From Candidatus Campbellbacteria bacterium GW2011_OD1_34_28 (GTDB taxonomy: Bacteria; Patescibacteriota; Minisyncoccia; Phycocordibacterales; UBA12079): a DNA stretch of 64,000 nucleotides. This document shows positions 5,441-61,229 of the stretch, one piece after another (the first letter of the stretch is position 1; each line of letters begins with the position of its first letter). The DNA lies in assembly GCA_001029775.1 (NCBI GenBank), contig CP011215.1:123187-187186 (forward strand), given 5' to 3'. Below the pieces are notes generated by a model, which worked only from the letters and a program-made list of their open reading frames with translations, was not told the DNA's origin and ran no database searches. Position numbers and translations under genes: made by a program.

Positions 5441-5600
5441 GCGGAGAGGGAGGGATTCGGTCACAAGTCACTAAGTCTTTTGTTCGCCCTTCGCTATCGC
5501 TACGGGCTCCAAAAGCCAAAGTGTTCGCGACCCCGACTCAGAAAGTTGAAAAATTTAATAAATTTTTCCTTTCTTCCGTCTTTCGAATCCCTCCATCGCA
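5441..5600. repeat. 19-bp direct copy of the tRNA-Ser 3' end (gcggagagggagggattcg, compare 6579-6597), followed by a member of the composite repeat family (gtcacaagtcactaagtcttttgttcg...cgaccccgactc...) that ends in an inverted T-arm fragment (cgaatccctccatcgc).
   Basis: Sequence identity to the tRNA-Ser end; family members also at 6667-7080, 16745-17260 and 58205-58929. Confidence 0.7.
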
Positions 5601-6666: not shown

Positions 6667-7080
6667 ATGTTTTTTATTCAATTTTTGTCGAAGGATTTTA
6701 GTCACGAGTTACTAATCTTTTTGTTCGTTCTTCGCTACGCTACAAACTCCAAAAATATAAGTACTCTCGACCCCGACTCGACTGTCTCGCTTTGCTCGAC
6801 ATGTCTCCGTCTCTTGATTTCAGACAGAAAGCAAAGAAATTTGCTTTCCTTTCTGCTAAATATTTTTTATAAAAGATAAAAGATATTTAGCAGAACTTAA
6901 ATCAAGCCTTGCCACGTTAGCAGTGTGGTGGTTTCACCCACCTATTTCCTATTCGCCTATCGGCTCATAACGGAAATTTCTTCGCTTCGCTCAGAATCGG
7001 ATTAAAAACAAAGCAGTTTGTTTTTAGTCCTCTCACCCACCCCTGCCTGCCGGCAGGCAGGTCTCCAAAATTCAGTTTTT
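6667..7080. repeat. Non-coding region next to tRNA-Ser. It holds a tRNA-Ser fragment copy (ccttgccacgttagcagtgtggtggtttcac at about 6908-6940), a composite repeat family member (gtcacgagttactaatctttttgttcg...cgaccccgactcg), and the GC palindrome at 7041-7060.
   Basis: Direct sequence comparison with the tRNA gene at 6577-6666 and with 5460-5545. Confidence 0.65.
7041..7060. repeat. GC-rich 20-bp perfect palindrome CCTGCCTGCCGGCAGGCAGG, copy 1. Other copies: 11992-12011, 17026-17045, 56503-56522 and 58306-58325 (all perfect); 61210-61225 (degenerate); and the split variants 8102-8146 and 58789-58831.
   Basis: Exact 20-mer read at each listed position. Confidence 0.8.
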
Positions 7081-7258
7081 AGTTATTAGGTTTTAGTCTA
7101 TAGAAAACAAAAACCGTAATAAAGTGTACAAGAGTACACATACAAGAAGATATCATATTTTAACTTCAAAATCTATCTTTTTTAAAATTGCTTAAATTGC
7201 CCCAATCAAAAAGAGCGATTATATCGCTCTTTTTTGTTTTCTATATCTTTCTTGTTAA

Positions 7259-11535: not shown

Positions 11536-11608
11536 GCGCACGTAGCTCAGTTGGTAGAGCGCCGAGCTTATACCTCGGTGGTCCCAGGTTCGAGTCCTGG
11601 CGTGCGCA
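11536..11608 (+). tRNA. tRNA-Ile with anticodon UAU (TAT); no encoded CCA.
   Basis: GCGCACG-TA-GCTC-AGTTGGTA-GAGC-G-CCGAG-CTTATAC-CTCGG-TGGTC-CCAGG-TTCGAGT-CCTGG-CGTGCGC-A. All stems are Watson-Crick; the 7-nt anticodon loop is CTTATAC. Confidence 0.8.
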
Positions 11609-11646
11609 CAAAATTAAAAATACTTTTGCTAAAAACCAAAAGTATT

Positions 11647-11973: not shown

Positions 11974-12256
11974 AATTAAAAATTCAATCGCCCTGCCTGC
12001 CGGCAGGCAGGTTTGCAAGAACCGGATAAAAAACTTAAACGCTTTTTATCCAACTGAGCTACATGTGCATACACAAAACTTTATCTCAAAACGTCTATTT
12101 AATCAACTCGAATATTTTTACCTTTCTTACTTTTGATTACCGACATGGATTACTTCGTTTCACTCGCAAGGATGGGCGAGCTGTCGGCTTCGTTTTCGTC
12201 CTTACTACTTAATACTTACTACTTATACCTAGTTGGGAAAACAAAAAATAGTTTTG

Positions 12257-15666: not shown

Positions 15667-15721
15667 GCAAAAAATTTTTATAATACTAGATACTAAATAC
15701 TAAATACTATATACTTTTTCT

Positions 15722-16171
15722 ATGGCTACTTTTATTAGAAACAAAAAAGTTTCATTTGATTATGAAATCTTGGAGAAATTCGATGCTGGCATTGAGCTTT
15801 TTGGTTTTGAAGTAAAATCTATAAAAAGCAATCACGGAAATATAGAAGGATCACATATAACGGTCAGAGGCGGAGAAGCATTTCTTTTAAATGCAAACAT
15901 TCCCCCTTATCAAACAGCCAATACCCCAAAAGACTATAATCCTGAAAGAAATCGCAGACTTCTCTTAACCAAAAAAGAGTTGTCTGAATTGTCTGGATTG
16001 GAAGAAAAGAAAGGATTGACGATAGTGCCTATTTCGATGTATAATAAGGGGAAGAAAATAAAGATAGAAATTGCGGTTGTTCGTGGAAAAAAGAAATTTG
16101 ATAAGAGAGAATCGATAAAAAAGAAAGATACGGAGCGTGATTTAAGACGAGAAATCAAATCACGATTATAA
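15722..16171 (+). CDS. smpB: SsrA-binding protein SmpB.
   Basis: 149 aa with the SmpB-like pattern (KVSFDYEILEKFDAGIELFGFEVKSIK...NPERNRRLLL) and a basic C-terminal tail; a tmRNA candidate lies immediately downstream. Confidence 0.85.
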   Translation: MATFIRNKKVSFDYEILEKFDAGIELFGFEVKSIKSNHGNIEGSHITVRGGEAFLLNANIPPYQTANTPKDYNPERNRRLLLTKKELSELSGLEEKKGLTIVPISMYNKGKKIKIEIAVVRGKKKFDKRESIKKKDTERDLRREIKSRL

Positions 16172-16328
16172 ATTTTAGATTTTAAATTATAAATTAAAGT
16201 TCATTGAAAAATAAAAAAGAGAAATCGGTCATTCGCTTGCCGTATCCAATCACACTCGTATTGCTTGCAATTCGGGACAAACATTTCGTTTGAGCTTCGG
16301 TTCATCCTGAATGGAATGGATATGGCAA

Positions 16329-16713: not shown

Positions 16714-17340
16714 ATTTAAAAACACTGCCTTTAAAGGCAGTGTTTTTAAATTGTGGAAGTGAGCAAGGCAACTGCTTGCCTTGCGTGCGAGAATCGAAAG
16801 TCGGAACATGTTGAGCGAAGTGAAACAGTGAGACGGGGTCGCGAGCACTTAGGCTTTTGGAGTTCGCAGCGAAGCGGAGAACGAACAAAAGACTTAGTGA
16901 CTTGTGACCGATTCTCGCCTACTCTCTTAAGTCCCAAAGCACCTAGCTTTGGGGCTTTTGATTTTGTAAGAAGTGGCGAGAATCGAAACGAGCGAAGTAT
17001 GGAGGAGCGAAACGACGAACACGAGCCTGCCTGCCGGCAGGCAGGCGAGCGGGGATAAAAAACGTTTAAGTTTTTTATCTGTTTTTTGCGAAGCAAAAAA
17101 TTTTCTTAATTGAGTGAAACGAAATAGAAAATAGGAGGAACAGAGTTCTTAGTGAAGACGAGTTCCGAGCTTGTCGAGGGACGAAGTCTGAACTTAGAAC
17201 TGGAGACCGATTCTCGCCCAAAAGACTTAGTGACTTGTGGCCGATACAGACCACCTCCGCCAGAACATAAAGCAAATTAAAACCGTCTGAACTGTACCCC
17301 AAAAAGTGGGCACTTTCGTGCCCACTTTTTGAGGTACAGT
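16714..17340. repeat. Repeat-rich non-coding block downstream of the tmRNA. It holds a 58-bp perfect palindrome across the tmRNA 3' end (cacttccacaattt...aaattgtggaagtg), inverted members of the composite repeat family, the GC palindrome at 17026-17045, and a terminal terminator (aaaaagtgggcactttcgtgcccacttttt).
   Basis: The reverse complement of 16840-16925 matches gtcacaagtcactaagtcttttgttcg...cgaccccg seen at 5460 and 58475. ggcgagaatcg copies the tmRNA T-arm. Confidence 0.65.
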
Positions 17341-28767: not shown

Positions 28768-28916
28768 ACTATAAGTATATAGGATTAAGGAATAAGGAGT
28801 AAGTGTGCGATGTTGAAAAAACAAGGATAAATTACGGTCTCTACTTATCCCTTACTCCTTACCCCTTGAGAAATTGAATAAAACAAAAAAGGGCTTTTTA
28901 AAAGCCCTTTTTTGTT

Positions 28917-38962: not shown

Positions 38963-41791
38963 TTAAAATTCAATAATTTTTGATCCACAATCCAAAGGAC
39001 AATTCAAGAAATTCTCGTTTGAATTACATGCATTGTCTCCACAGAAAGAATTTTCATTATCTATTGGTTCTCCACAATCTTGAGGACAAAGACTACCCTC
39101 TCCTTGTTCACAAACATTGTTTTCACATTCTGGCTCACAATCTTGCGGACAATTATTAGCATTTTCCCCAGATCCACAAATATAATCTGTTCCACATCCT
39201 TCTGGACAATTTTCAGAACATCCAAGACGACAATCTGTTCCACAATCTCCAGCATTTTCAGTCATACAATTATTACTACATCCATCTCCACTGTTTGTGT
39301 TTCCGTCATCACACTGTTCTTGTCCTTCCTTTACCCCATTTCCACAGACAGCATTTCCTGCTCCTCCTTCAATAGCACAAACACTGCTACATCCGTCCCC
39401 ACTATTTGTGTTTCCATCATCACATTCTTCACCTGTATTTAATGTTCCGTTTCCACAATTTACGCTGACATTTGTCCTAATTGCCGAACAACTCGCGATT
39501 GTTCCCCCATTTCCCGCACATCTCCAATTTGCTGTTTGGCCGGGCAAAGGAAAGGCTGGTGCTGTAAATACCGTTTCCAAAGAATTAGATCCTGTTGAAT
39601 TTATAGGAGTTCCAACCTTACACCACGCACTGCCTGAAGGCCAAGTAGTTTCTGTTGCCAAATAAGTTCCTTTTCTCTGAGCATTTCTTATTCCACAGTC
39701 GCCGTTGGTTACGATAGGTACACTAGGTACATTAGCTCTAGTTGCAGAACAAGTATCTCCCAATCCGGTTCCCTGAGGAATTGGCAAACAACTCCACCAA
39801 ACTGTCTGTCCTGGGTTTGGGAAACTTGTCGGAGTTCCTGAAGGAGTCCCCAATTTACACCAAGCACTGCCAGATGGCCAAGCGGTTTCTGTTGCCAAAT
39901 AATTTCCTTCTCTCTGAGCATTTCTTGCTCCGCAATCCCCGGGCAAGTTACAACTTACTGAACGACTAAGTGTTCCTATCAAAACGTCTATTAGACACAT
40001 CGATCCATTTGCGACAGGTAATCCCTGACACATATCTCCGATTCCAGGTCTTGGACAACAGTGACATCCGTTTTGGGTAAATTTTGCTGTTGCAGAAATA
40101 ACAGTCGGACTAGTTGAGATTGTTTTTACAACTCTGTGTACTCTGGTTGGATTTGCTTCATGTCCATAATCAATAATACTGATACCACCAGCATTGTCAG
40201 TTATCTTTGCTTGCAAACCATTTACACAAGCCCCACAAACCACTCTTAGCGTAACATCCATTATTGCAGTTCCTCCACAAGTCGGAGTAACAGGTTCTCT
40301 AGACACCCAAAATGTTGTTGTGGGAATACCTCCTCCACACATACAAAGAGCTTCTGTCTTTTGATAATCACCAAAGAACAAAATTCCAGGAAGAAATACG
40401 ATCATAATCATCACTGCTAAATCAATTTTCCCTTTTCTTTTTAAATAAACAAAAATTCCTATCAAGACAATTAACAATCCAATCAATATATACATGTCAT
40501 AACTTTTTACTCCATACTTTTTGAAATATTTGATATCCATACTGTAACTATCCAAAACATCCCCTGTCTTTGTATCTTTGATCACCAGATTCATTTCTTT
40601 TAATTTTGTTCTTTGAGAAACAGCGTCATCAAAAATAATTTTTCCTCCATATTCATCCAAAGAAACTTCTTTTGAAAAAGTTTGATCAAATCCCCAACTT
40701 CCAGTCAAATGCAATTCTGCCGTAACAGAATTTCCCTTTCCGTTGATTGAAACAACCTCAGCAGAAATTTCTAGCTTTTCACCATTCTTGTAATAATTTC
40801 TTCCTGAATCAACACTCATAATACGAGCAATCAACTGACCATATTCAACCAACCATCTCAAATTTCTTGTAAACAAATATTCATCTTCATCATTAATCAA
40901 AGAAAATTTTATTTCAAAAGGACCTCCTTTTTTCAAAACCTCATTGCCAGCAGTATCAATTTCTACAAAAAGAGAATCTTGCCCATCAACAACCTTTCTT
41001 GAAAGATCACCTTTTGAAGAAACAATCAGTTTCTTTTCCCCCAAAGTGTCATATATATCCATTTCGTATTTCATCACCTTTGAAGATTTTACATAAGCAT
41101 CCACTCCAGCATTTTCACCTAATGGAATCAAAATAAGAGGTTTGTCTTCTGGTGTAGTAGAAAGTCCCACCATAGGTGCTGTTTTTCCATAAGTGGTTGT
41201 ATAGAAATACATTTTTATTCCGGAAAGTCTTCCTCCTGTTCCGTCTAGTAGAATAGGTTCTTCTATGAAATCAACATTTTGAAATTTTAAATTTTTGTCA
41301 TTAACAAAAACTTGAACAAAATAATTTCCTGTCTCAATATTTTTAGGAACATCAATAGACAAGATTTTTGTTTGAACGGCATTAGGAGCAAGTTTTCCCA
41401 AGTTTTTTACTTCTTGATATGTGTGTTCTGTCGTTGAAAAAATATATCCTTCTGTAGCCAATGCTTCTCCTCTTCTTATTTCAACTACATATTCCAGATC
41501 ATCCAAAAAATTGGCTGTATTATTTTTGATATCTGTTTGAACACTCAATTTTCTGTTCGCTTGATCAAAAGAAATATCTTTTATTTTCAATTCTACTTCG
41601 GGAATATAAGGAACTGTTTCCCCTGCATAGTTTACAGTAATACCTTCTACATCATCGCCAAAACTATTTTCTTCGGCGACTGCATCCACAACGGGAGAAT
41701 CTCCTTCCACAGCAAAAAGCTGTGTCCCAAAACTGACCATTCCTGAAAGGAAAATGGCCAACATCAAAAACTTAACAAATGTTGATTTCAT
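38963..41791 (-). CDS. Giant surface protein P2 (942 aa), a paralog of P1 with the same layout: signal peptide, N-terminal domain, TM pair (YILIGLLIVLIGIFVYL-KRKGKIDL-AVMIMIVFLPGILFFG), four-Cys repeats, Myxococcus-type cysteine-rich repeats (CGNG...GEECDDGNTNSGDGCS..C, twice), and the C-terminal module CGDNACNSNENFLNCPLDCGSKIIEF.
   Basis: Read from the ORF translation. The C-terminal 25 aa are nearly identical to those of P1. Confidence 0.7.
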   Translation of the reverse strand: MKSTFVKFLMLAIFLSGMVSFGTQLFAVEGDSPVVDAVAEENSFGDDVEGITVNYAGETVPYIPEVELKIKDISFDQANRKLSVQTDIKNNTANFLDDLEYVVEIRRGEALATEGYIFSTTEHTYQEVKNLGKLAPNAVQTKILSIDVPKNIETGNYFVQVFVNDKNLKFQNVDFIEEPILLDGTGGRLSGIKMYFYTTTYGKTAPMVGLSTTPEDKPLILIPLGENAGVDAYVKSSKVMKYEMDIYDTLGEKKLIVSSKGDLSRKVVDGQDSLFVEIDTAGNEVLKKGGPFEIKFSLINDEDEYLFTRNLRWLVEYGQLIARIMSVDSGRNYYKNGEKLEISAEVVSINGKGNSVTAELHLTGSWGFDQTFSKEVSLDEYGGKIIFDDAVSQRTKLKEMNLVIKDTKTGDVLDSYSMDIKYFKKYGVKSYDMYILIGLLIVLIGIFVYLKRKGKIDLAVMIMIVFLPGILFFGDYQKTEALCMCGGGIPTTTFWVSREPVTPTCGGTAIMDVTLRVVCGACVNGLQAKITDNAGGISIIDYGHEANPTRVHRVVKTISTSPTVISATAKFTQNGCHCCPRPGIGDMCQGLPVANGSMCLIDVLIGTLSRSVSCNLPGDCGARNAQREGNYLATETAWPSGSAWCKLGTPSGTPTSFPNPGQTVWWSCLPIPQGTGLGDTCSATRANVPSVPIVTNGDCGIRNAQRKGTYLATETTWPSGSAWCKVGTPINSTGSNSLETVFTAPAFPLPGQTANWRCAGNGGTIASCSAIRTNVSVNCGNGTLNTGEECDDGNTNSGDGCSSVCAIEGGAGNAVCGNGVKEGQEQCDDGNTNSGDGCSNNCMTENAGDCGTDCRLGCSENCPEGCGTDYICGSGENANNCPQDCEPECENNVCEQGEGSLCPQDCGEPIDNENSFCGDNACNSNENFLNCPLDCGSKIIEF

Positions 41792-42021
41792 AATTTTTAC
41801 TTATAAATAAAATAAACCTAATAATATATCTTTAATTGTATACCACTGACCACATAAATAAAGGTACAATGTGGATATCGCTATCAAAAAAGACTTGTCG
41901 TTTCAAGAAATAATCAAATAGACCTATACCTTGCTTTAAAATAAATACCGTGATATTATTTTTTATGTTAGAGATAAGTTCGCCGAATAGGCGGACTCGT
42001 TTTTTTAAAAAATTAATAATA

Positions 42022-42120
42022 GCGTATAGGGTTTAGCGTTTAGGGTTTAGTAAAGACAAATTTTGCCGAAGGCAAAATTTGTTCTCCTATACGCTGTACC
42101 CTATACCCTATACCCTAAAC
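42022..42120. repeat. Long palindromic element directly upstream of nusA, with central hairpin caaattttgcc-gaa-ggcaaaatttg (42057-42081).
   Basis: Outer arms gcgtatagggtttagcgtttagggtttag / ctataccctataccctaaac are inverted. Related copies at 46707-46812 and 51190-51290. Confidence 0.65.
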
Positions 42121-42122
42121 AT

Positions 42123-43379
42123 ATGTTAGACCTAAAAACAATAAACGCTGTTCTAGACGAACTGGAACAAGAAAAAGGAATTCCTAGAGAAAAAATCATC
42201 GAAGCAATCGAGATGGCTTTGGCGAGCGCCTACAAAAAAGAATATGGCAAAAAAGGCCAAATAATCCGCGCAAAATCTGATCTAAACTCTGGAAAGACAG
42301 AATTTTCACAAGTAAAAATCGTTGTGGACGAATCAATGCTTAAACCAGAAATTGAAGAAGGCGAAGAAGAGGAAATAGTAGAAGAAACAGAAGGAGAAGA
42401 CACAAAAGTAAGATTTAATCCTGAACAGCACATAATGATAGAAGATGCCCAAAGAATCAAAAAAGGTGTTGCTTTGAATGACGAAATCATTTTCCCATTG
42501 GAAGAAAAAGATGATTTTGGAAGAATTGCCGCTCAAACAGCAAAGCAAACAATCATCCAAAAGATCAGAGAAGCTGAAAAATCTTCTGTTTTCAAAGAAT
42601 TTGGTTCAAAAGAAGGTGATATCATCAGCGGAACAGTACAAAGAATTGAAAGAGGTAATATTTTCGTTGATTTGGGTAGAGCAACAGGCATATTGCCTTA
42701 TGAAGAACAAATCAGAAGCGAAAGATACAAACAAGGTGAAAGAGTTCGTGCTTACCTATATTCAGTAGAAGAAAGTCCAAAAGGCGTATTCTTGAAACTG
42801 TCTCGTACTCATCCTCAATTTCTTTACAAATTGTTTGAAGTAGAAGCTCCAGAAATTGCTAGCGGAATTGTAGAAATCAAAGGAATTGTAAGAGAATCGG
42901 GATCTCGTTCAAAAGTGGCTGCTTATTCAAACGATGAACACATTGATCCAATTGGTTCTCTTGTAGGACAAAGAGGTGTCAGAGTTTCTACGATTATGAG
43001 CGAACTAGGAGGAGAAAAAATAGATATCATAGAGTGGTCAGAAGATCCTCAAAAATACATAGAAGACGCTTTGTCTCCTGCAAAAATAATGAGTATCATA
43101 CTAAACGAAGACGAAAAAACTGCGACAGTTGAAGTATCCGAAGATCAACAATCATTGGCAATCGGAAAAGGTGGACAAAATGTAAGATTGGCTGCCAAAT
43201 TGACTGGTTGGAAAATTGACATCAAAGGTGTTGGTGGAGTAGATTTGGAAAAAAGAGAAAGAAAACAACCAGAAGAAACAAAAAAGGTTGAAGAAACTCC
43301 AAAATCAGAAGACATCGAAACAACAAACACAGAAAAAGTTGCGGAAACAACACAAGAAATAGAAAAAACTGAAGAATAA
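42123..43379 (+). CDS. nusA: Transcription termination/antitermination factor NusA.
   Basis: N-terminal domain (LDELEQEKGIPREKIIEAIEMALASAYKK), S1 (GDIISGTVQRIERGNIFVDLG), KH domains (GSLVGQRGVRVS; LAIGKGGQNVRLAAKLTGWKIDI), and an acidic tail. The start is trimmed to MLDLK; the ORF-track extension reads through the palindromic element. Confidence 0.85.
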   Translation: MLDLKTINAVLDELEQEKGIPREKIIEAIEMALASAYKKEYGKKGQIIRAKSDLNSGKTEFSQVKIVVDESMLKPEIEEGEEEEIVEETEGEDTKVRFNPEQHIMIEDAQRIKKGVALNDEIIFPLEEKDDFGRIAAQTAKQTIIQKIREAEKSSVFKEFGSKEGDIISGTVQRIERGNIFVDLGRATGILPYEEQIRSERYKQGERVRAYLYSVEESPKGVFLKLSRTHPQFLYKLFEVEAPEIASGIVEIKGIVRESGSRSKVAAYSNDEHIDPIGSLVGQRGVRVSTIMSELGGEKIDIIEWSEDPQKYIEDALSPAKIMSIILNEDEKTATVEVSEDQQSLAIGKGGQNVRLAAKLTGWKIDIKGVGGVDLEKRERKQPEETKKVEETPKSEDIETTNTEKVAETTQEIEKTEE

Positions 43380-46535: not shown

Positions 46536-46706
46536 TGGTTTATTTCAAGTAAAAATCTAAATTGAATATAACAAAACAAAATACATTCCGTCAAGCAAGT
46601 ATGCTAAAACACGACTTACTCCTTACTCCTTACTACTAGTTACTCGTGTGTTGGACTTTTCCTCATATTTTTTATAGTATTAGAATCTAATTAAAAAAAT
46701 AACAAA

Positions 46707-46812
46707 GCGTATAGCGATTAGCGTTTAGGGGATAGGTTATGAACGAATTTTGGCTCTGCCAAAATTCGTTTGTCGCATATCTACACCCTACACCCTATAC
46801 CCTATACCCTAC
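46707..46812. repeat. Long palindromic element directly upstream of tig, with central hairpin cgaattttggc-tct-gccaaaattcg (46744-46768).
   Basis: The stem differs from the nusA and ppaC copies by a gcc/ggc to ggc/gcc swap (compensatory). Outer arms gcgtatagcgattagcgtttagggg / caccctacaccctataccctataccctac. Confidence 0.65.
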
Positions 46813-46818
46813 AAAAAG

Positions 46819-47865
46819 ATGATTAAATTTGATGTAAAAGTTGAAAAACTAAAAAATTCCGAGGTTGAAATAACAGGATCTATTCCTTTTGAAGAATTGG
46901 AAAAATTTAGAAAAGAAGCGGTAGAAAAGGCAGGAGCAGGAATAAAGATAGACGGCTTTAGAGAAGGAAAAATCCCTGAGAAAATTTTGATTGAAAAAAT
47001 TGGTGAAATGGCAATCTTAAATGAAATGGCAGAAATAACATTTGGTTATGCTTATGTGGATATTTTATTGATGAACAAAATTGATGCAATCACATCCCCT
47101 CAGGTAACAATAACAAAATTGGCAAAAGATAATCCTTTTGAATTTAAAGTAAAAGTAGCCGTAATGCCAAAATTTGAATTGGCAGATTACAAAAAAATCG
47201 CCAAAAAAGAAATGGAAAAAAAGACCGATTCAACCGACGCGACAGAAGAAGAGCTGGATAAAACTATCGAGCAAATTCAAAAATCTCAAAAACATATCAA
47301 AGAAGACGGAGCAGAAGTAACCGAGAAAGATTTGGAAAAAGATTTGCCTGAATTAAATGACGAATTTGTAAAAAAACTTGGCGATTTTAAAGACGTGGAG
47401 GATTTCAAAAACAAACTCAAAGAAAATATTAAGCACGAAAAAGAACACAAACAAAAAGAAAGTAGAAGATTGGCTATTTTGGAAAATATTATAAAAGAAA
47501 CCGAGATAGACTTGCCAGAAATATTGGTTGATTCAGAGTTGCGAAAAATGATTGCAGAAATGAGAGACAGCATCGGCAGAATGGGACTCAATTTTGAAAA
47601 ATATTTGGAACAAATAAAAAAGACAGAGGATGATTTGAGAAAAGAATGGCGAGCTGACGCAGAAAACAGAGTAAAGGGCCAATTGGTTCTAAACCAAATT
47701 TCATTGGATGAAAAAATTCTGCCAGACGAAACACAAGTAAAGAAAAATGTAGATATGCTGATGTCTCAATATAAAAATGCAAAAAGAGAAAATGTGGAAG
47801 TTTATGTAAGTATGATGATTACGAATGACGAGGTGTTTAAACTTCTTGAATCTCAAAAAGTTTAA
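46819..47865 (+). CDS. tig: Trigger factor (short form).
   Basis: N-terminal ribosome-binding domain (MIKFDVKVEKLKNSEVEITGSIP...GFREGKIP) and a C-terminal helical arm domain; 348 aa. The start is trimmed out of the palindromic element. Confidence 0.75.
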   Translation: MIKFDVKVEKLKNSEVEITGSIPFEELEKFRKEAVEKAGAGIKIDGFREGKIPEKILIEKIGEMAILNEMAEITFGYAYVDILLMNKIDAITSPQVTITKLAKDNPFEFKVKVAVMPKFELADYKKIAKKEMEKKTDSTDATEEELDKTIEQIQKSQKHIKEDGAEVTEKDLEKDLPELNDEFVKKLGDFKDVEDFKNKLKENIKHEKEHKQKESRRLAILENIIKETEIDLPEILVDSELRKMIAEMRDSIGRMGLNFEKYLEQIKKTEDDLRKEWRADAENRVKGQLVLNQISLDEKILPDETQVKKNVDMLMSQYKNAKRENVEVYVSMMITNDEVFKLLESQKV

Positions 47866-48308: not shown

Positions 48309-48356
48309 GGATTGTAATACTGCTTCAAATTTTTTCTCAAAAGATTTGAAGTGCCA

Positions 48357-48445
48357 AGGCTCGCAAAGACGACAGCTTTGCTGTCGTCGACGGACGAAAA
48401 AGCAAAGCTTTTTCGTCCGTCTTCACGAGCGAAGCGAAGTGATCC
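48357..48445. repeat. GC-rich twin-hairpin element (gacgacagc-tttg-ctgtcgtc; gacggacgaaaaagc-aaag-ctttttcgtccgtc) bracketed by ctcgcaaagacg / cgtcttcacgag; a diverged relative of the palindromic element family.
   Basis: Shares ctcgcaaagacga...ttcgtccgtc with the ppaC-upstream copy at 51205-51250. Confidence 0.55.
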
Positions 48446-48972: not shown

Positions 48973-49141
48973 TTTGTTATTATCCACTATTCTCTCCTTT
49001 TCAAAGATTGAGTAAAAACAATTATTTCCTCCCAAAACAATAATACAACAACCACAGCAAGTCAAGACTTTATACTTCCCCCCAAAACTGTTATATTTTT
49101 AACATCGTTTACTTTACAAACTTTATAAACTTTTAACTACC

Positions 49142-51034: not shown

Positions 51035-51189
51035 GACAATACCTCCCTGTCCTGTTAATTTTTTTCAAACTAATATTGTTGAATTTACTAGGTACTTTTC
51101 TGACAAAAATATATAATAAATATATTATCAAGTCAATCCTTTCTGTTTTTCATCAAAATTGTTAAGATTTTTGTATTCATTATTAACTG

Positions 51190-51290
51190 GATTGCTTCGC
51201 CTAACGACTCGCAAAGACGAATTTTGCCTTTGGCAAAATTCGTCCGTCGTTGCTATAGGCTATAAGCTATCCGCTATCAACTATAAATTT
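51190..51290. repeat. Long palindromic element directly upstream of ppaC, with central hairpin cgaattttgcc-ttt-ggcaaaattcg (51217-51241).
   Basis: Third copy of the family. Outer arms cgcctaacgactcgcaaagacg / cgtccgtcgttgctataggc. Confidence 0.65.
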
Positions 51291-52211
51291 ATGCGTCACA
51301 TAATAGGTCACAAAAACCCCGACACCGACACAATCTGTTCAGCATTAGTCTACGCAGATTTTCTTAATCAAAAAGGCATCTCTGCCAAAGCATTTGCATT
51401 GGGTCCGTTAAACAAAGAAACAAAATTTGTTTTTGAAAAATTTGGAGAAAAAGATCCAGAGCATATTACAGAACTACCAAAAGGAACAGAAATTATTTTG
51501 TTGGATCATAACGAAGAAGGACAGAGTATTGATAATATAAAAGATTTGGATATTGTTGAAATCATTGACCACCACAAAGTAAAAATAGAAACCGACAAGC
51601 CAATTTCTATTTATATTGAACCGTTGGGATCTTCTTGTTCAATCATCGCAAAAAAATATTTTGAAACAAGAACAGAATTATCAAAAGTAAACGCGAGTTT
51701 GCTAATCGCTGGAATAATTTCCGATACTCTTTTCTTTCGCTCCCCTACTACCACTCAAATAGACAAAGATTTGGTAGAAAAATTAAACGAAATCGCCAGA
51801 ATTGAAGATTTAGAAAAATTTAGTCTTGAAATGTTTAATGCAAAAAGCGATTTAGGAAATATGCCTGTTGAGGAGATAATAAAATTGGATTATAAAATAT
51901 TTGAATTTGCTGGAAATAAATACGGAATTGGCGTAATGGAAACAACAAACAAAGGTTATGGTCTAAATAGAAAAGACGAAATAACAACCAAACTAAAAGA
52001 AATAAAAACAAAAGACGGATTAAAAGCAGTTTTCTTTTCAATTGTAGATATTTTAAATGAAGCAAGTTACACACTGACATCGGGGAATGAAGAAACAGAA
52101 ATGTTTACAAACATATTCGGAGCAGTAGAAAAAGAAGGAGCATTGTTTGTAGACAAATTGGTTTCAAGAAAAAAACAGGTTGTGCCGAGGTTTCAGGAAT
52201 ACATAAAATAA
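51291..52211 (+). CDS. ppaC: Manganese-dependent inorganic pyrophosphatase (family II; DHH + DHHA2).
   Basis: HKNPDTDTICSA, LLDHNE, DHHKV, ISDTLFFRSPTT, and GVMETTN reads as family II PPase along its whole length. The start is trimmed to MRHIIGHKNPD. Confidence 0.8.
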   Translation: MRHIIGHKNPDTDTICSALVYADFLNQKGISAKAFALGPLNKETKFVFEKFGEKDPEHITELPKGTEIILLDHNEEGQSIDNIKDLDIVEIIDHHKVKIETDKPISIYIEPLGSSCSIIAKKYFETRTELSKVNASLLIAGIISDTLFFRSPTTTQIDKDLVEKLNEIARIEDLEKFSLEMFNAKSDLGNMPVEEIIKLDYKIFEFAGNKYGIGVMETTNKGYGLNRKDEITTKLKEIKTKDGLKAVFFSIVDILNEASYTLTSGNEETEMFTNIFGAVEKEGALFVDKLVSRKKQVVPRFQEYIK

Positions 52212-53347: not shown

Positions 53348-54088
53348 ATGTCTTTACTAAATGAATTAAAAGAAGCCGGTTTAAGCATTAACGAAGCCAA
53401 AGTATATTTGGCATCTTTAGAATTGGGTGAATCCACAATTGTCAGAATCTCACAAAAATCAAAGGTTAAAAGAGCCACTGTATATCTAGCAATTGATTCC
53501 CTAAAAGAGCAGGGTTTGATAAGTTTTACTAAAAGAAAAAATAAAACCTTGTTTTTTGCAGAAGATCCAAGAAAACTTCAAGAAAAAATAGAAGAAAAAA
53601 AAGAAAAGATAGCAAAAATAATGCCGGAATTGTTATCCTTTAGTAACCTGATTGATAAAAAACCAAAAATTAAATATTTTGAAGGGAGAGAACCTGTTAA
53701 AGAAATTTTTAGAGATCTTTTAAATTATCCAAATCAAGAACTTATCGGATGGTTTCCAGACCAATCTTATTGGCTGGGTGATGATTTTTTTAGCGATTAT
53801 TTTATTCCAAAAAGAATGGCGAAAAAAATTTGGATTAGAAGTATCGCCCCAATAACCGATTACAACAAAAAATTTGCAGAGCTTGGCAAAAAACAACTCA
53901 AAAAAACCAGATTTGTTGATAACGACAAATACAACATTCATATTCAAATCCTTGTTTATGGAAAAAACAAAATTGCAATCATATCCTATACCGAAGAAAT
54001 TGGATTGATTATAGAAAGTAAAAATATTTATGAAGCACTAGAAAGTATCTTTAATGTTATGTGGGAGAGCCTACCAGAAGGAAAATGA
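53348..54088 (+). CDS. TrmB family transcriptional regulator.
   Basis: N-terminal winged HTH (LSINEAKVYLASLELGESTIVRISQKSKVKRATVYLAIDSLKEQGLI), coiled linker, C-terminal domain; 246 aa. Confidence 0.65.
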   Translation: MSLLNELKEAGLSINEAKVYLASLELGESTIVRISQKSKVKRATVYLAIDSLKEQGLISFTKRKNKTLFFAEDPRKLQEKIEEKKEKIAKIMPELLSFSNLIDKKPKIKYFEGREPVKEIFRDLLNYPNQELIGWFPDQSYWLGDDFFSDYFIPKRMAKKIWIRSIAPITDYNKKFAELGKKQLKKTRFVDNDKYNIHIQILVYGKNKIAIISYTEEIGLIIESKNIYEALESIFNVMWESLPEGK

Positions 54089-54128
54089 GGATAGTTTTTA
54101 GTAATTAGTTTTTAGTTTTTAGAATTTA

Positions 54129-56283: not shown

Positions 56284-56639
56284 TAAATAAAGAAAAGAGC
56301 GACCTGCCAAGCAGGTCGCTCTTTTCTTTATTTATTAGCGAATTATTAATTTTAAATTATAAATTATAAATTACTTTAAATTACACCCAGATGACGAAAA
56401 AGTTCTTTAAATTTCTAATTATTTCAAAATTAGATACAGAACGAGGAGCAAGAACAAAATGGAAGAAGGCATATTTTTAATACGACGACTGATGTTTTGT
56501 GACCTGCCTGCCGGCAGGCAGGATTGCGACAAAGTTATGTGCTAATTTTGAGATAATTATCACCTATTGCACAAAAAATGGCTTAATATATAATAGTTAG
56601 TATAAATGGTTTTATTAGTAATTAATAAAAAATAAAAAA

Positions 56640-58204: not shown

Positions 58205-58929
58205 TTTTCTTTGTGCGGATAGGACAGAAGAGAATCGGCGCCAGTTCTAAATATTTTGTTCGTCACTCGACAAGCTCGTGACTTCAAAATATTAAGAACT
58301 CGCTGCCTCGCTCGCCTGCCTGCCGGCAGGCAGGCTCGTGTTCGTCGGGCAAAGCCCTCCTCCATACTTCACTCGTTTCGATTCTCCCTATTCGCTACAA
58401 AAACCAAAGACCCAAAAGCTGCCGCTTTTGGGTCTAGGTTTTTGTGCGGATAGAATAGATGAGAATCGGTCACGAATCACTAAGTCTTTTGTTCACCCTT
58501 CACTTCGTTACGGGTTCCAAAAGTCTAAGTGTTCTCGACCCCGGCTCGCCTTCTCGCTTCGCTCGATATGGCTCCGCCTTTCGATTCTCCACGAAAAGCA
58601 AGCAGTTGCTTTTCTCTATCCGAACAGCACAAAGTGAAAACCACCCTATTCGGGTGGTTCACTTTGGCTGTGCGGATAGGATAGATGAGAATCGGTCTCC
58701 AGTTCTAAGTAAAAATTTCGTTTTCGCTTCGCTTCAACTCATTTTTACTAAGAACTCGCGACCCCGCTCGCTCAGATTTTTTCTCCACCCTGCCTCTTTT
58801 CTGAAAGAAAAGCAACGACACGGTAGGCAGGTTCGTTACGAAAAAATATACTTCGCTCGTTTCGATTCTCCCTATTCGCTACAAAAATATATTACGAAAA
58901 AGCTAGTCGCTTTTTCTCCATTATTTTTG
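58205..58929. repeat. Three tandem units of about 230-260 bp of the composite repeat family. Each begins with a copy of the tRNA-Gly 3' end (ttgtgcggatagga.agaRgagaatcgg at 58211, 58443, 58669) and ends with an inverted copy (cgattctcc...ctatccg...caca). Units carry the GC palindrome (58306-58325) or its split variant (58789-58831).
   Basis: Direct comparison with the tRNA-Gly gene at 58930-59000 (tgtgcggatagggagaatcgaac). Unit interiors match 5460-5545 and 16840-16925 (gtcacgaatcactaagtcttttgttc...cgaccccg) and 17195-17255 (gagaatcggtctccagttctaagt). Confidence 0.75.
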
Positions 58930-59000: not shown

Positions 59001-59158
59001 GATTATTCAGTTTTTAGTCATTAGTTTTTAGTGTTTAGAGATAGTAAATAAAAAAACAAAAACTAACATCAACCAGTATAAGATATTTTGGGCTTTTTTT
59101 CAAATTTAAAAACCCCCGGATATGCTTTACGCATACAACCGAAGGGTTTGTTTGTGCC

Positions 59159-61160: not shown

Positions 61161-61229
61161 GGGCTTGCCCCTATTTTTTTATTTTAGTTTTTCTACTCAC
61201 TACCCACTACCTGCCAGCAGGCAGGCCCA

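Follow-up and report, generated by a model that had tools for sequence, protein, structure and literature searches.

The 64-kb window analyzed here, a 64,000-nt stretch of contig CP011215.1 from Candidatus Campbellbacteria bacterium GW2011_OD1_34_28, carries long palindromic elements directly before three housekeeping genes, namely nusA, tig, and a ppaC-like gene. We consider it probable (approximately 0.6) that the three elements belong to a family of modular palindromic DNA repeats, present in many copies and restricted to one lineage, in Campbellbacteria-type members of the Candidate Phyla Radiation (CPR), comparable to repetitive extragenic palindromic (REP) sequences and bacterial interspersed mosaic elements (BIME) or to miniature inverted-repeat transposable elements (MITE); most likely, they are not a regulator shared by nusA, tig, and ppaC. 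The conserved unit that would spread is a perfect hairpin of approximately 13 bp with a 3-nt loop (GACGAATTTTGSC-NNN-GSCAAAATTCGTC), placed centrally within exchangeable outer arms of two kinds: period-7 TAG/TAA arrays surround it at nusA and tig, and the widespread motif GGATTGCTTCGC..TCGCAAAGACG forms the arms at ppaC and in a twin-hairpin relative. Copies would be propagated between loci by some copying process and would turn over fast through insertion, replacement, or gene conversion, the symmetry of the palindrome being kept, presumably, at the DNA level, and the three window copies would merely happen to sit in short 5′ leaders.

All three elements are imperfect palindromes of 85–105 nt (Table 1) and have in common the core hairpin (A)CRAATTTTGSC-NNN-GSCAAAATTYG(T), with a 12–13-bp stem and a 3-nt loop. 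An earlier note on this DNA, made from the sequence alone, had described the three long hairpins, and its description holds: the loci read as it gave them, the central stems and their 3-nt loops are exact, and the elements fold together with their inverted outer arms into long hairpins. The pattern RAATTTTGSCNNNGSCAAAATTY has three exact matches in the window, compared with 0.21 expected when up to three mismatches are allowed, and none of 100 shuffles reached three. RNA folds of the whole elements gave, on both strands, long interrupted hairpins of −37 to −45 kcal/mol (z −4.9 to −7.6), and the two window copies folded as single-stranded DNA (ssDNA) gave z values of −7.6 (nusA) and −6.3 (ppaC). 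Pairing spans 42019–42111 at nusA, 46706–46810 at tig, and 51188–51273 at ppaC, leaving 11, 8, and 17 unpaired nt, respectively, between the last paired base and the ATG.

The nusA and tig copies (subfamily A) are approximately three-quarters identical by eye in a three-way alignment, share bases to the left of the palindrome as well ('ttaaaaaaWtaaYaa'), and have outer arms made of period-7 arrays, which in the nusA copy take the form of (TAG-N4)x4–5 on the left (42020–42050) and (CTA-N4)x5 on the right (42086–42117). The arms of subfamily B, comprising the ppaC copy and the twin hairpin, are built from GGATTGCTTCGC...TCGCAAAGACG; this motif forms the left arm of the ppaC copy, the right arm of which continues into a CTATnnn x5 array. 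The twin hairpin, to which the earlier note had drawn attention as a relative of the ppaC copy, was recovered together with the segments common to both ('ctcgcaaagacga' and 'ttcgtccgtc'), and has an outer stem GCTCGCAAAGACG / CGTCTTCACGAGC and inner hairpins at 48368–48388 and 48389–48421.

Base pairing is maintained in this hairpin family. A scan for the core, restricted to one genome per species, yielded at least 118 matching stretches. Both free positions of the pattern were complementary in 106 of 128 matches against 25% expected, with all four complementary versions common (40, 26, 19, and 17), and stems ran at least 3 bp past the pattern in 35% of the matches compared with 7.6% in controls. 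Among 43 distinct CPR copies, 87.5% of cells pair (78% in shuffles), and the covariation score of 0.301, compared with 0.121 in shuffles, was reached by none of 500 shuffles; the pair 15–21 is GC in 24 copies and CG in 19 and is never unpaired, and four to five pair types occur at each of three pairs outside the search pattern. The swap of GCC/GGC for GGC/GCC between window copies, which the earlier note had read as compensatory, is real and generalizes to the 128 matches and the 43 CPR copies, in agreement with the covariation that the note had proposed to look for.

No strand stands out in this pairing. Over 24 elements oriented by their neighboring gene, G.U pairs numbered 55 in the sense and 61 in the antisense fold, and the energy differences between the two folds went both ways. 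Loops are found in both complementary forms (TTT in 17 and AAA in 13 copies; GAA in 11 and TTC in 6), and the loop of the ppaC element has changed from ttt to aaa in locus L202, which belongs to a close relative (NusA at least 90% identical, same gene order). Because neither strand is preferred and the loops occur, and flip, in both forms, the palindrome appears to be kept symmetric as DNA; the lack of a sense-strand bias gives no indication of selection at the RNA level.

In a few CPR assemblies the core is dispersed in several copies: the matches listed include at least 18 from JAHIOZ01, at least 8 from CAZSPC01, and 3 from CAYUZR01. JAHIOZ01 is related to the source genome, its locus L017 being syntenic with the window at 18.7–27 kb (43–82% amino-acid identity). 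In 889 kb from 80 other Parcubacteria, a set picked through NusA and hence unbiased regarding the hairpin, no match was obtained even when two mismatches were allowed; the hairpin family is lineage-restricted. At L084, L086 (twice), L030, and L112 (CAZSPC01/CAYUZR01) the build is that of the window, i.e., TAG/TAA heptads, core, and complementary heptads, and at L084, L086, and L030 the right arm stops a few nucleotides before the next ATG.

The family is tied neither to gene starts nor to gene function. Genes start 21 times and stop 23 times within 200 nt of the CPR copies, which are nearly all intergenic and occupy co-directional, divergent, and convergent spacers. The genes that follow them encode proteins as different as RecJ, HIT, PilB, ParB, L17 (in two genomes), L25, MurB, AlaRS, cyclophilin, L23, L2, CysRS, LigA, PheS, RelA/SpoT, and GreA, and in the ribosomal-protein cluster of L086 two copies lie between consecutive genes, one on each side of rplW. 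The statement of the earlier note that the elements stand exactly upstream of housekeeping starts is thus correct for the three window copies but not for the family; copies at sites unrelated to gene starts, named in that note as the finding that would speak against its proposal, exist in related genomes.

Among the matches listed, many were singletons in unrelated phyla, some of them directly beside tRNA genes. Their interpretation as a universal, cross-phylum hairpin was rejected as over-reading, since singletons fit chance among very many terminator-like hairpins. The same 23-nt hairpin was also encountered, at the center of or within a multi-hairpin unit, in a multi-copy family of Saprospiraceae (L015, L018, L031, L061, L068, L080, L097, L100, L106, L108, L114, L115) and in another of Firmicutes/Pullichristensenella (L004, L007, L036, L041, L047, L049, L051, L054, L055, L065, L067, L070, L071, L088, L098, L105); we read both as unrelated families that merely contain the 23-mer through chance or convergence. 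A scan of IMG/VR with the core pattern gave only two matches and thus no link to phages, and searches of the literature for the sequence itself and for CPR/Parcubacteria palindromes, REP sequences, or all-frame stop codons turned up no description of this hairpin family.

Comparison of orthologous sites demonstrated rapid turnover and module exchange. A metagenome scan based on NusA provided 80 loci (61–74% identity); the element is absent from most of 73 metagenomic nusA leaders and from the tig leaders of relatives (approximately 45 examined), which have a terminator and a promoter-like box approximately 10 nt before the ATG. Most orthologous nusA leaders have only 16–68 nt between a small conserved hairpin and the ATG, and approximately 9 of 38 have 105–136 nt there, most of which hold a long palindrome of unrelated sequence. 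From this comparison, the 98-nt nusA element of the window looks like an insertion into a leader of approximately 20 nt, which would explain its closeness to the ATG. In L202, the tig element differs from the window copy by one base, and the outer stem of the ppaC element has changed on both sides (aacGAc/gTCgtt to aacAGc/aCTgtt), a compensatory change at two positions. At the nusA site of L202, the flanks are conserved and the palindrome is a different one, with the core AAAATTTGC-ttt-GCAAATTTT and arms of AGCnnAT / GCTATnn heptads. For the twin hairpin, no counterpart was detected in the corresponding part of L202, where the neighboring genes also differ; in JAHIOZ01, recJ and HIT are separated by a copy that is missing from the window. 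Presence/absence polymorphism across relatives was found at three orthologous sites (nusA, tig, and recJ-HIT).

The truly conserved element of the nusA leader is, to judge from the alignments, the small hairpin located immediately upstream of copy 1, of the terminator or attenuator type and outside the repeat family. The window leader (41931–42005) consists of a promoter-like TTGCTT-17-TATTAT followed by the hairpin AGTTCGCC-gaata-GGCGGACT and a T-run; in relatives, the hairpin has the form (A)GTTCGCC-loop-GGCGRRC, again followed by a T-run. Of 75 nusA upstream regions, the window's among them, 38 match a strict pattern for this hairpin with its T-run, the promoter-like region is also shared among the nusA leaders of the 80 loci, and U.G wobble pairs in a 32-sequence alignment constitute a signature of RNA structure. 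This hairpin looks like a leader terminator, possibly involved in NusA autoregulation.

The outer arms are modular as well. With one or two short variable inner hairpins, the arm motif of subfamily B recurs in JAHIOZ01, CAZSPC01, and a Paceibacterota assembly (L066), and a variant, TCGCAATGACG, is present in one locus (L181) of the unbiased Parcubacteria set. Since the arm motif is found with varied inner hairpins, the AATTTTGSC hairpin can be regarded as one exchangeable inner module of mosaic palindromes. Period-7 arrays made up 14 of the 20 window arrays with at least three copies, compared with 31 of 94 in the 889 kb of other Parcubacteria. As separate observations, these arrays are the dominant intergenic tandem repeat and often form inverted pairs or stand right before ATGs, and several CPR genomes have composite palindromes whose outer arms consist of GGATYGCTTCGCTTCGC-TCGCRAWGACG and its inverse (window 51189–51219 and 48361–48445; L181 14375–14440; L116, L072, L066, L084), a motif more widespread than the AATTTTGSC core.

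In their working, the elements are closest to REP/BIME or Correia-type repeats; of the traits that define these classes, however, they lack the GTAG tag and the conserved termini, and neither a REP-associated tyrosine transposase (RAYT) nor a target duplication was found, so that they are filed as a variant and not as a member. Similarly to REP, BIME, and REPIN sequences, they are short, near-perfect, extragenic, multi-copy, and lineage-specific palindromes in which pairing is kept over sequence, and they form mosaics with other motifs, pair into larger hairpins, and are often co-transcribed (PMC3733652, PMC3333891). Their size and copy number (a 27–33-nt core, three copies per 64 kb, nearly all intergenic) are also those of REP sequences. 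The unpaired GTAG/CGTC foot tag is missing: window copies have TAGT, TAGG, or AAAG beside the stem, only 6 of 42 CPR copies have a GTAG among the 20 nt to their 5′ side, and CGTC in the window copies is base-paired. REPs favor positions downstream of genes (PMC3733652), between co-directional or convergent genes; the window copies, by contrast, occupy divergent 5′ spacers, and the other CPR copies flank starts and stops alike (21 and 23). Further differences concern the hairpin itself, with 13 bp and a 3-nt loop here compared with 8–9 bp and 4–5 nt in the CGTC families of REPs, and the composition, the present elements being A+T-rich with arms of heptad arrays. Neither a RAYT nor another transposase was detected by tblastn in approximately 2 Mb with IS200/IS608 TnpA queries, which is weak evidence.

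Correia/NEMIS and ERIC-type MITEs are 100–150 bp in length, lie near genes, form long hairpins, and are co-transcribed into leaders, and the Correia-type hairpins of Neisseria are RNase III substrates that alter mRNA stability. MITEs keep terminal inverted repeats and target-site duplications (TA for Correia). Here, in contrast, the center is conserved and the ends vary, so that no terminal inverted repeats with fixed ends are seen, and inspection of the three copies revealed no obvious direct repeat; the presence/absence polymorphism at orthologous sites is a feature in common with MITEs. Of the suggestions made in the earlier note, those of a structured DNA element and of a MITE-like one fit best, although neither the terminal inverted repeats and target-site duplication of MITEs nor the GTAG tag and RAYT of REPs were seen.

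Intergenic heptamer arrays also recall the short tandemly repeated repetitive (STRR) sequences and small dispersed repeats (SDR) of cyanobacteria, such arrays being over-represented in many bacteria (PMC4692102), and very small repeats of 21–27 nt are mentioned as inserting into other repeats in Nostocaceae (PMC5861425); phylum and sequences differ, and the parallel of a small hairpin within an array is a lead only. With intrinsic terminators the elements have in common that they are stable intergenic hairpins, and some non-CPR core matches lie directly 3′ of tRNA genes, but the window copies have no T-run, follow no gene end, and were not reported by the terminator scan, and the ordinary terminators of the genome belong to another class (A-run, G+C stem, T-run). 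HutP antiterminator sites are composed of (UAG-N4)x3, which the left arms TAG-N4-TAG-N4-TAG-N4-TAG resemble; this is a resemblance only, and arrays elsewhere in the genome are built from TAA or different units, the arrays being scattered over many loci and both strands.

Several of these observations weigh against a family of mobile repeats: the absence of a transposase in the above search and of the GTAG tag of classical REPs from the window copies, the combination of a conserved center and variable ends, which is the opposite of a MITE, and the fact that neither fixed element ends nor a target-site duplication could be defined from the three-way alignment and the comparison with the nusA site of L202. 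The hypothetical proteins near the elements gave no informative Pfam/NCBIfam matches. In addition, each window copy is situated 5′ of a gene, and approximately a quarter of the nusA leaders contain a palindrome, which leaves room for some benefit of a leader hairpin, and neither the enrichment of TAG/TAA in the heptads nor the TAG- and G-rich 5′ side seen on both strands is predicted by a purely selfish model.

By their position, the elements are almost certainly co-transcribed with nusA, tig, and ppaC, and a transcribed element would give an interrupted stem of 33–41 bp ending 8–17 nt before the start codon. The hairpins may influence initiation or processing; if they act on translation, RNA processing, or RNA stability at all, they would do so incidentally or in a generic role and not as a control mechanism common to the three genes. 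It is conceivable, though we consider it unlikely, that such a role is what maintains the palindromes, i.e., that they are a generic RNA-level module selected as leader or intercistronic hairpins, for example as RNase III sites or exonuclease barriers, in which the TAG/TAA heptads of the 5′ arm would stop ribosomes in three frames short of the stem and the G-poor 3′ arm would provide an unstructured leader for initiation without a Shine-Dalgarno sequence. The closeness of the stems to the ATG is consistent with this explanation, as are the absence of a Shine-Dalgarno sequence from most window genes and the presence of copies within operons (the ribosomal-protein cluster of L086), where copies between the genes must be transcribed. 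TAA or TAG occurs in the heptad units of 13 of 14 window arrays (8.3 expected from letter shuffles; 13 reached by 0 of 500) and TAG in 9 of 14 (2.9 expected), with TAG under-represented across the window at 0.57 of expectation. When the nusA sites of the window and L202 are compared, the period-7 triplets (TAG in the left arm, CTA in the right) are retained in four of four cases, but only 3 of 12 spacer bases agree. Period-7 runs beside the core, moreover, are polar (TAR on the left 9 vs 1, YTA on the right 8 vs 2), and single TAG and CTA have the same polarity.

The same data contain the main arguments against RNA-level selection. TGA is found in none of the 14 arrays (3.0 expected), and the polarity belongs to a broader compositional skew, the 5′ arms being rich in G and poor in C overall (G 0.22, C 0.125); both findings weakened the idea, which we had considered, that selection on the heptads acts on every type of stop codon. 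Neither stability nor G.U pairs favor the sense strand, whereas the nearby nusA attenuator shows clear U.G pairs; no same-strand gene end lies upstream of the three window copies, so that a ribosome barrier would have no obvious target; and the elements are not conserved at orthologous sites. A related proposal, which appears somewhat less plausible still, is a functional, orientation-free intergenic module of certain CPR lineages, in which TAG/TAA every 7 nt on the 5′ arm of either strand would stop ribosomes in three frames, the stem would insulate or process transcripts, the G-poor 3′ arm would serve as an unstructured leader for Shine-Dalgarno-less or near-leaderless initiation, and cores and arms would be exchanged between loci by copying without a transposase; that the essential property is a set of stop codons covering every frame before the stem is a minority reading. 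If the polarity of the TAG/TAA heptads were indeed functional, the elements would represent a new kind of intergenic insulator.

Local origin de novo, without any moving element, would attribute the heptads to slippage and the palindromes to fold-back or template-switch copying around any stable hairpin. The abundance of heptamer arrays in the window (14 of the 20 counted above), the excess of heptamer repeats already known from the intergenic regions of bacteria, for which polymerase slippage has been held responsible (PMC4692102), the unrelated palindromes at the same nusA leader site in different lineages, and arms that are locus-specific around a shared center are all in line with it. Nevertheless, the 27–33-nt core and the outer motif TCGCAAAGACG recur at many unrelated loci in several genomes, which requires copying between loci, and the similarity between the nusA and tig copies reaches beyond the palindrome; we therefore hold this origin to be improbable. 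Little probability also remains for operator DNA, i.e., a 27-bp palindrome bound by a dimeric transcription factor (a TrmB-like protein encoded at 53348–54088 would be one candidate), despite the perfect dyad symmetry with invariant AATTTTG half-sites and the location of the three copies in divergent promoter regions: dyad-adjacent and stem-base positions change only as complementary pairs (GC 24 / CG 19), which is the behavior of a hairpin and not of two independent half-sites, copies lie between co-directional or convergent genes and inside operons, and the copy number per small genome is high. A cis-regulatory leader shared by a nusA-tig-ppaC regulon (riboregulator or protein-binding RNA), the first suggestion of the earlier note, is very unlikely, because the nearly identical cores and the position of three copies directly before housekeeping start codons within 9 kb are outweighed by the absence of the element from most orthologous nusA and tig leaders, its replacement at the nusA site of L202, the occurrence of the same hairpin beside unrelated genes, gene ends, and some non-CPR tRNA genes, the lack of strand asymmetry, and the lack of an Rfam match (only tmRNA and three tRNAs in the window at gathering thresholds, and only sub-threshold microRNA, snoRNA, and sRNA matches in a permissive search of 41800–42200).

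Repeats of the kind favored here bear on the biology of CPR bacteria, whose genomes are tiny and gene-dense and of whose non-coding DNA little is known. That a Campbellbacteria-type lineage tolerates and rapidly reshuffles palindromes of approximately 100 nt before essential genes and inside a ribosomal-protein operon is unexpected in a streamlined genome and raises the question of how they spread without a recognizable transposase. The comparison also separates a conserved attenuator of the nusA leader from the lineage-specific insertion adjacent to it. For annotation, the elements are a warning, as ORF callers run nusA, tig, and ppaC into them. The mechanical list of open reading frames (ORFs) extends all three into the elements, as the earlier note had observed, by starting them at TTG codons (42063, 46750, 51159); the ATG starts are backed by a public gene call (418 aa) and by alignments of orthologues from residue 1.

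Table 1. Coordinates of the palindromic elements, their core hairpins, neighboring genes, and heptad arrays in the window.
Feature	Position	Strand	Context or sequence	Basis
Palindromic element copy 1 (subfamily A)	42019..42117		nusA leader	sequence, RNA and ssDNA folds, period-7 arrays
Core hairpin of copy 1	42056..42082		ACAAATTTTGCC gaa GGCAAAATTTGT	perfect 12-bp stem, 3-nt loop; pattern match
Palindromic element copy 2 (subfamily A)	46706..46813		tig leader	sequence, folds, alignment
Core hairpin of copy 2	46742..46770		AACGAATTTTGGC tct GCCAAAATTCGTT	13-bp stem; GGC/GCC variant
Palindromic element copy 3 (subfamily B)	51188..51287		leader of ppaC-like gene	sequence, folds, arrays
Core hairpin of copy 3	51216..51244		GACGAATTTTGCC ttt GGCAAAATTCGTC	13-bp stem
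Twin-hairpin relative (subfamily B)	48352..48436		between two minus-strand genes	A-B-B'-C-C'-A' layout
Small nusA leader hairpin and T-run	41977..42005	+	immediately upstream of copy 1	terminator scan
nusA	42123..43379	+	downstream of copy 1	Pfam NusA_N, S1, KH; public gene call
tig (trigger factor)	46819..47865	+	downstream of copy 2	Pfam Trigger_N, Trigger_C
DHH/DHHA2 protein (PpaC-like)	51291..52211	+	downstream of copy 3	Pfam DHH, DHHA2
Period-7 arrays	1899-1930, 7074-7097, 12201-12225, 15682-15715, 16165-16196, 28781-28803, 28844-28867, 46615-46634, 54092-54122, 56341-56373, 59009-59038, 61193-61211			intergenic tandem repeats

The window has approximately 35% G+C, and its NusA is identical to AKM83871.1 (Candidatus Campbellbacteria, CPR/Parcubacteria); at least 24 assemblies contain this species. 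All three copies lie in divergent spacers, with the start codons of the minus-strand neighbors at 41791, 46514, and 51034. A promoter inside the element (right-arm TATACC/TACACC as −10, with a core TTGCC as −35) was rejected by eye on account of the missing final T of the −10 and unfit spacings, and the promoter scan found none inside any of the three elements. The trigger factor (348 aa) has no PPIase-domain match in Pfam. In relatives, a −10-like box TAnACT stands approximately 9–12 nt before the tig ATG (L159, L165, L169, L172, L184, L191, L194, L201), which, together with the scarcity of Shine-Dalgarno sequences, suggests very short or absent leaders in this clade.

Other repeats were noticed in the window. 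A second palindrome family, CCTGCCTGCCGGCAGGCAGG, has five to six copies (7042, 11992, 17026, 56503, 58315, and a weaker one at 61206), some with heptad arrays beside them. Repeats of approximately 120 nt (75–88% identity, both orientations; 5444–5540, 6695–6783, 16807–17007, 58357–58570) cluster beside tRNA-Ser, tmRNA, and tRNA-Gly and hold 'gagaatcgaa'-type segments resembling tRNA/tmRNA 3′ ends; they could be remnants of integration sites. A tRNA-Ile with the anticodon UAU, unusual in bacteria, is encoded at 11536–11609. Finally, 9-nt arrays (ACTTTAYAA / ACTTTTAAC) stand directly before the clpP ATG (49111–49133), and near-identical arrays precede genes in other CPR genomes (L130, L087, L101, L133), some of them beside AATTTTGSC hairpins.

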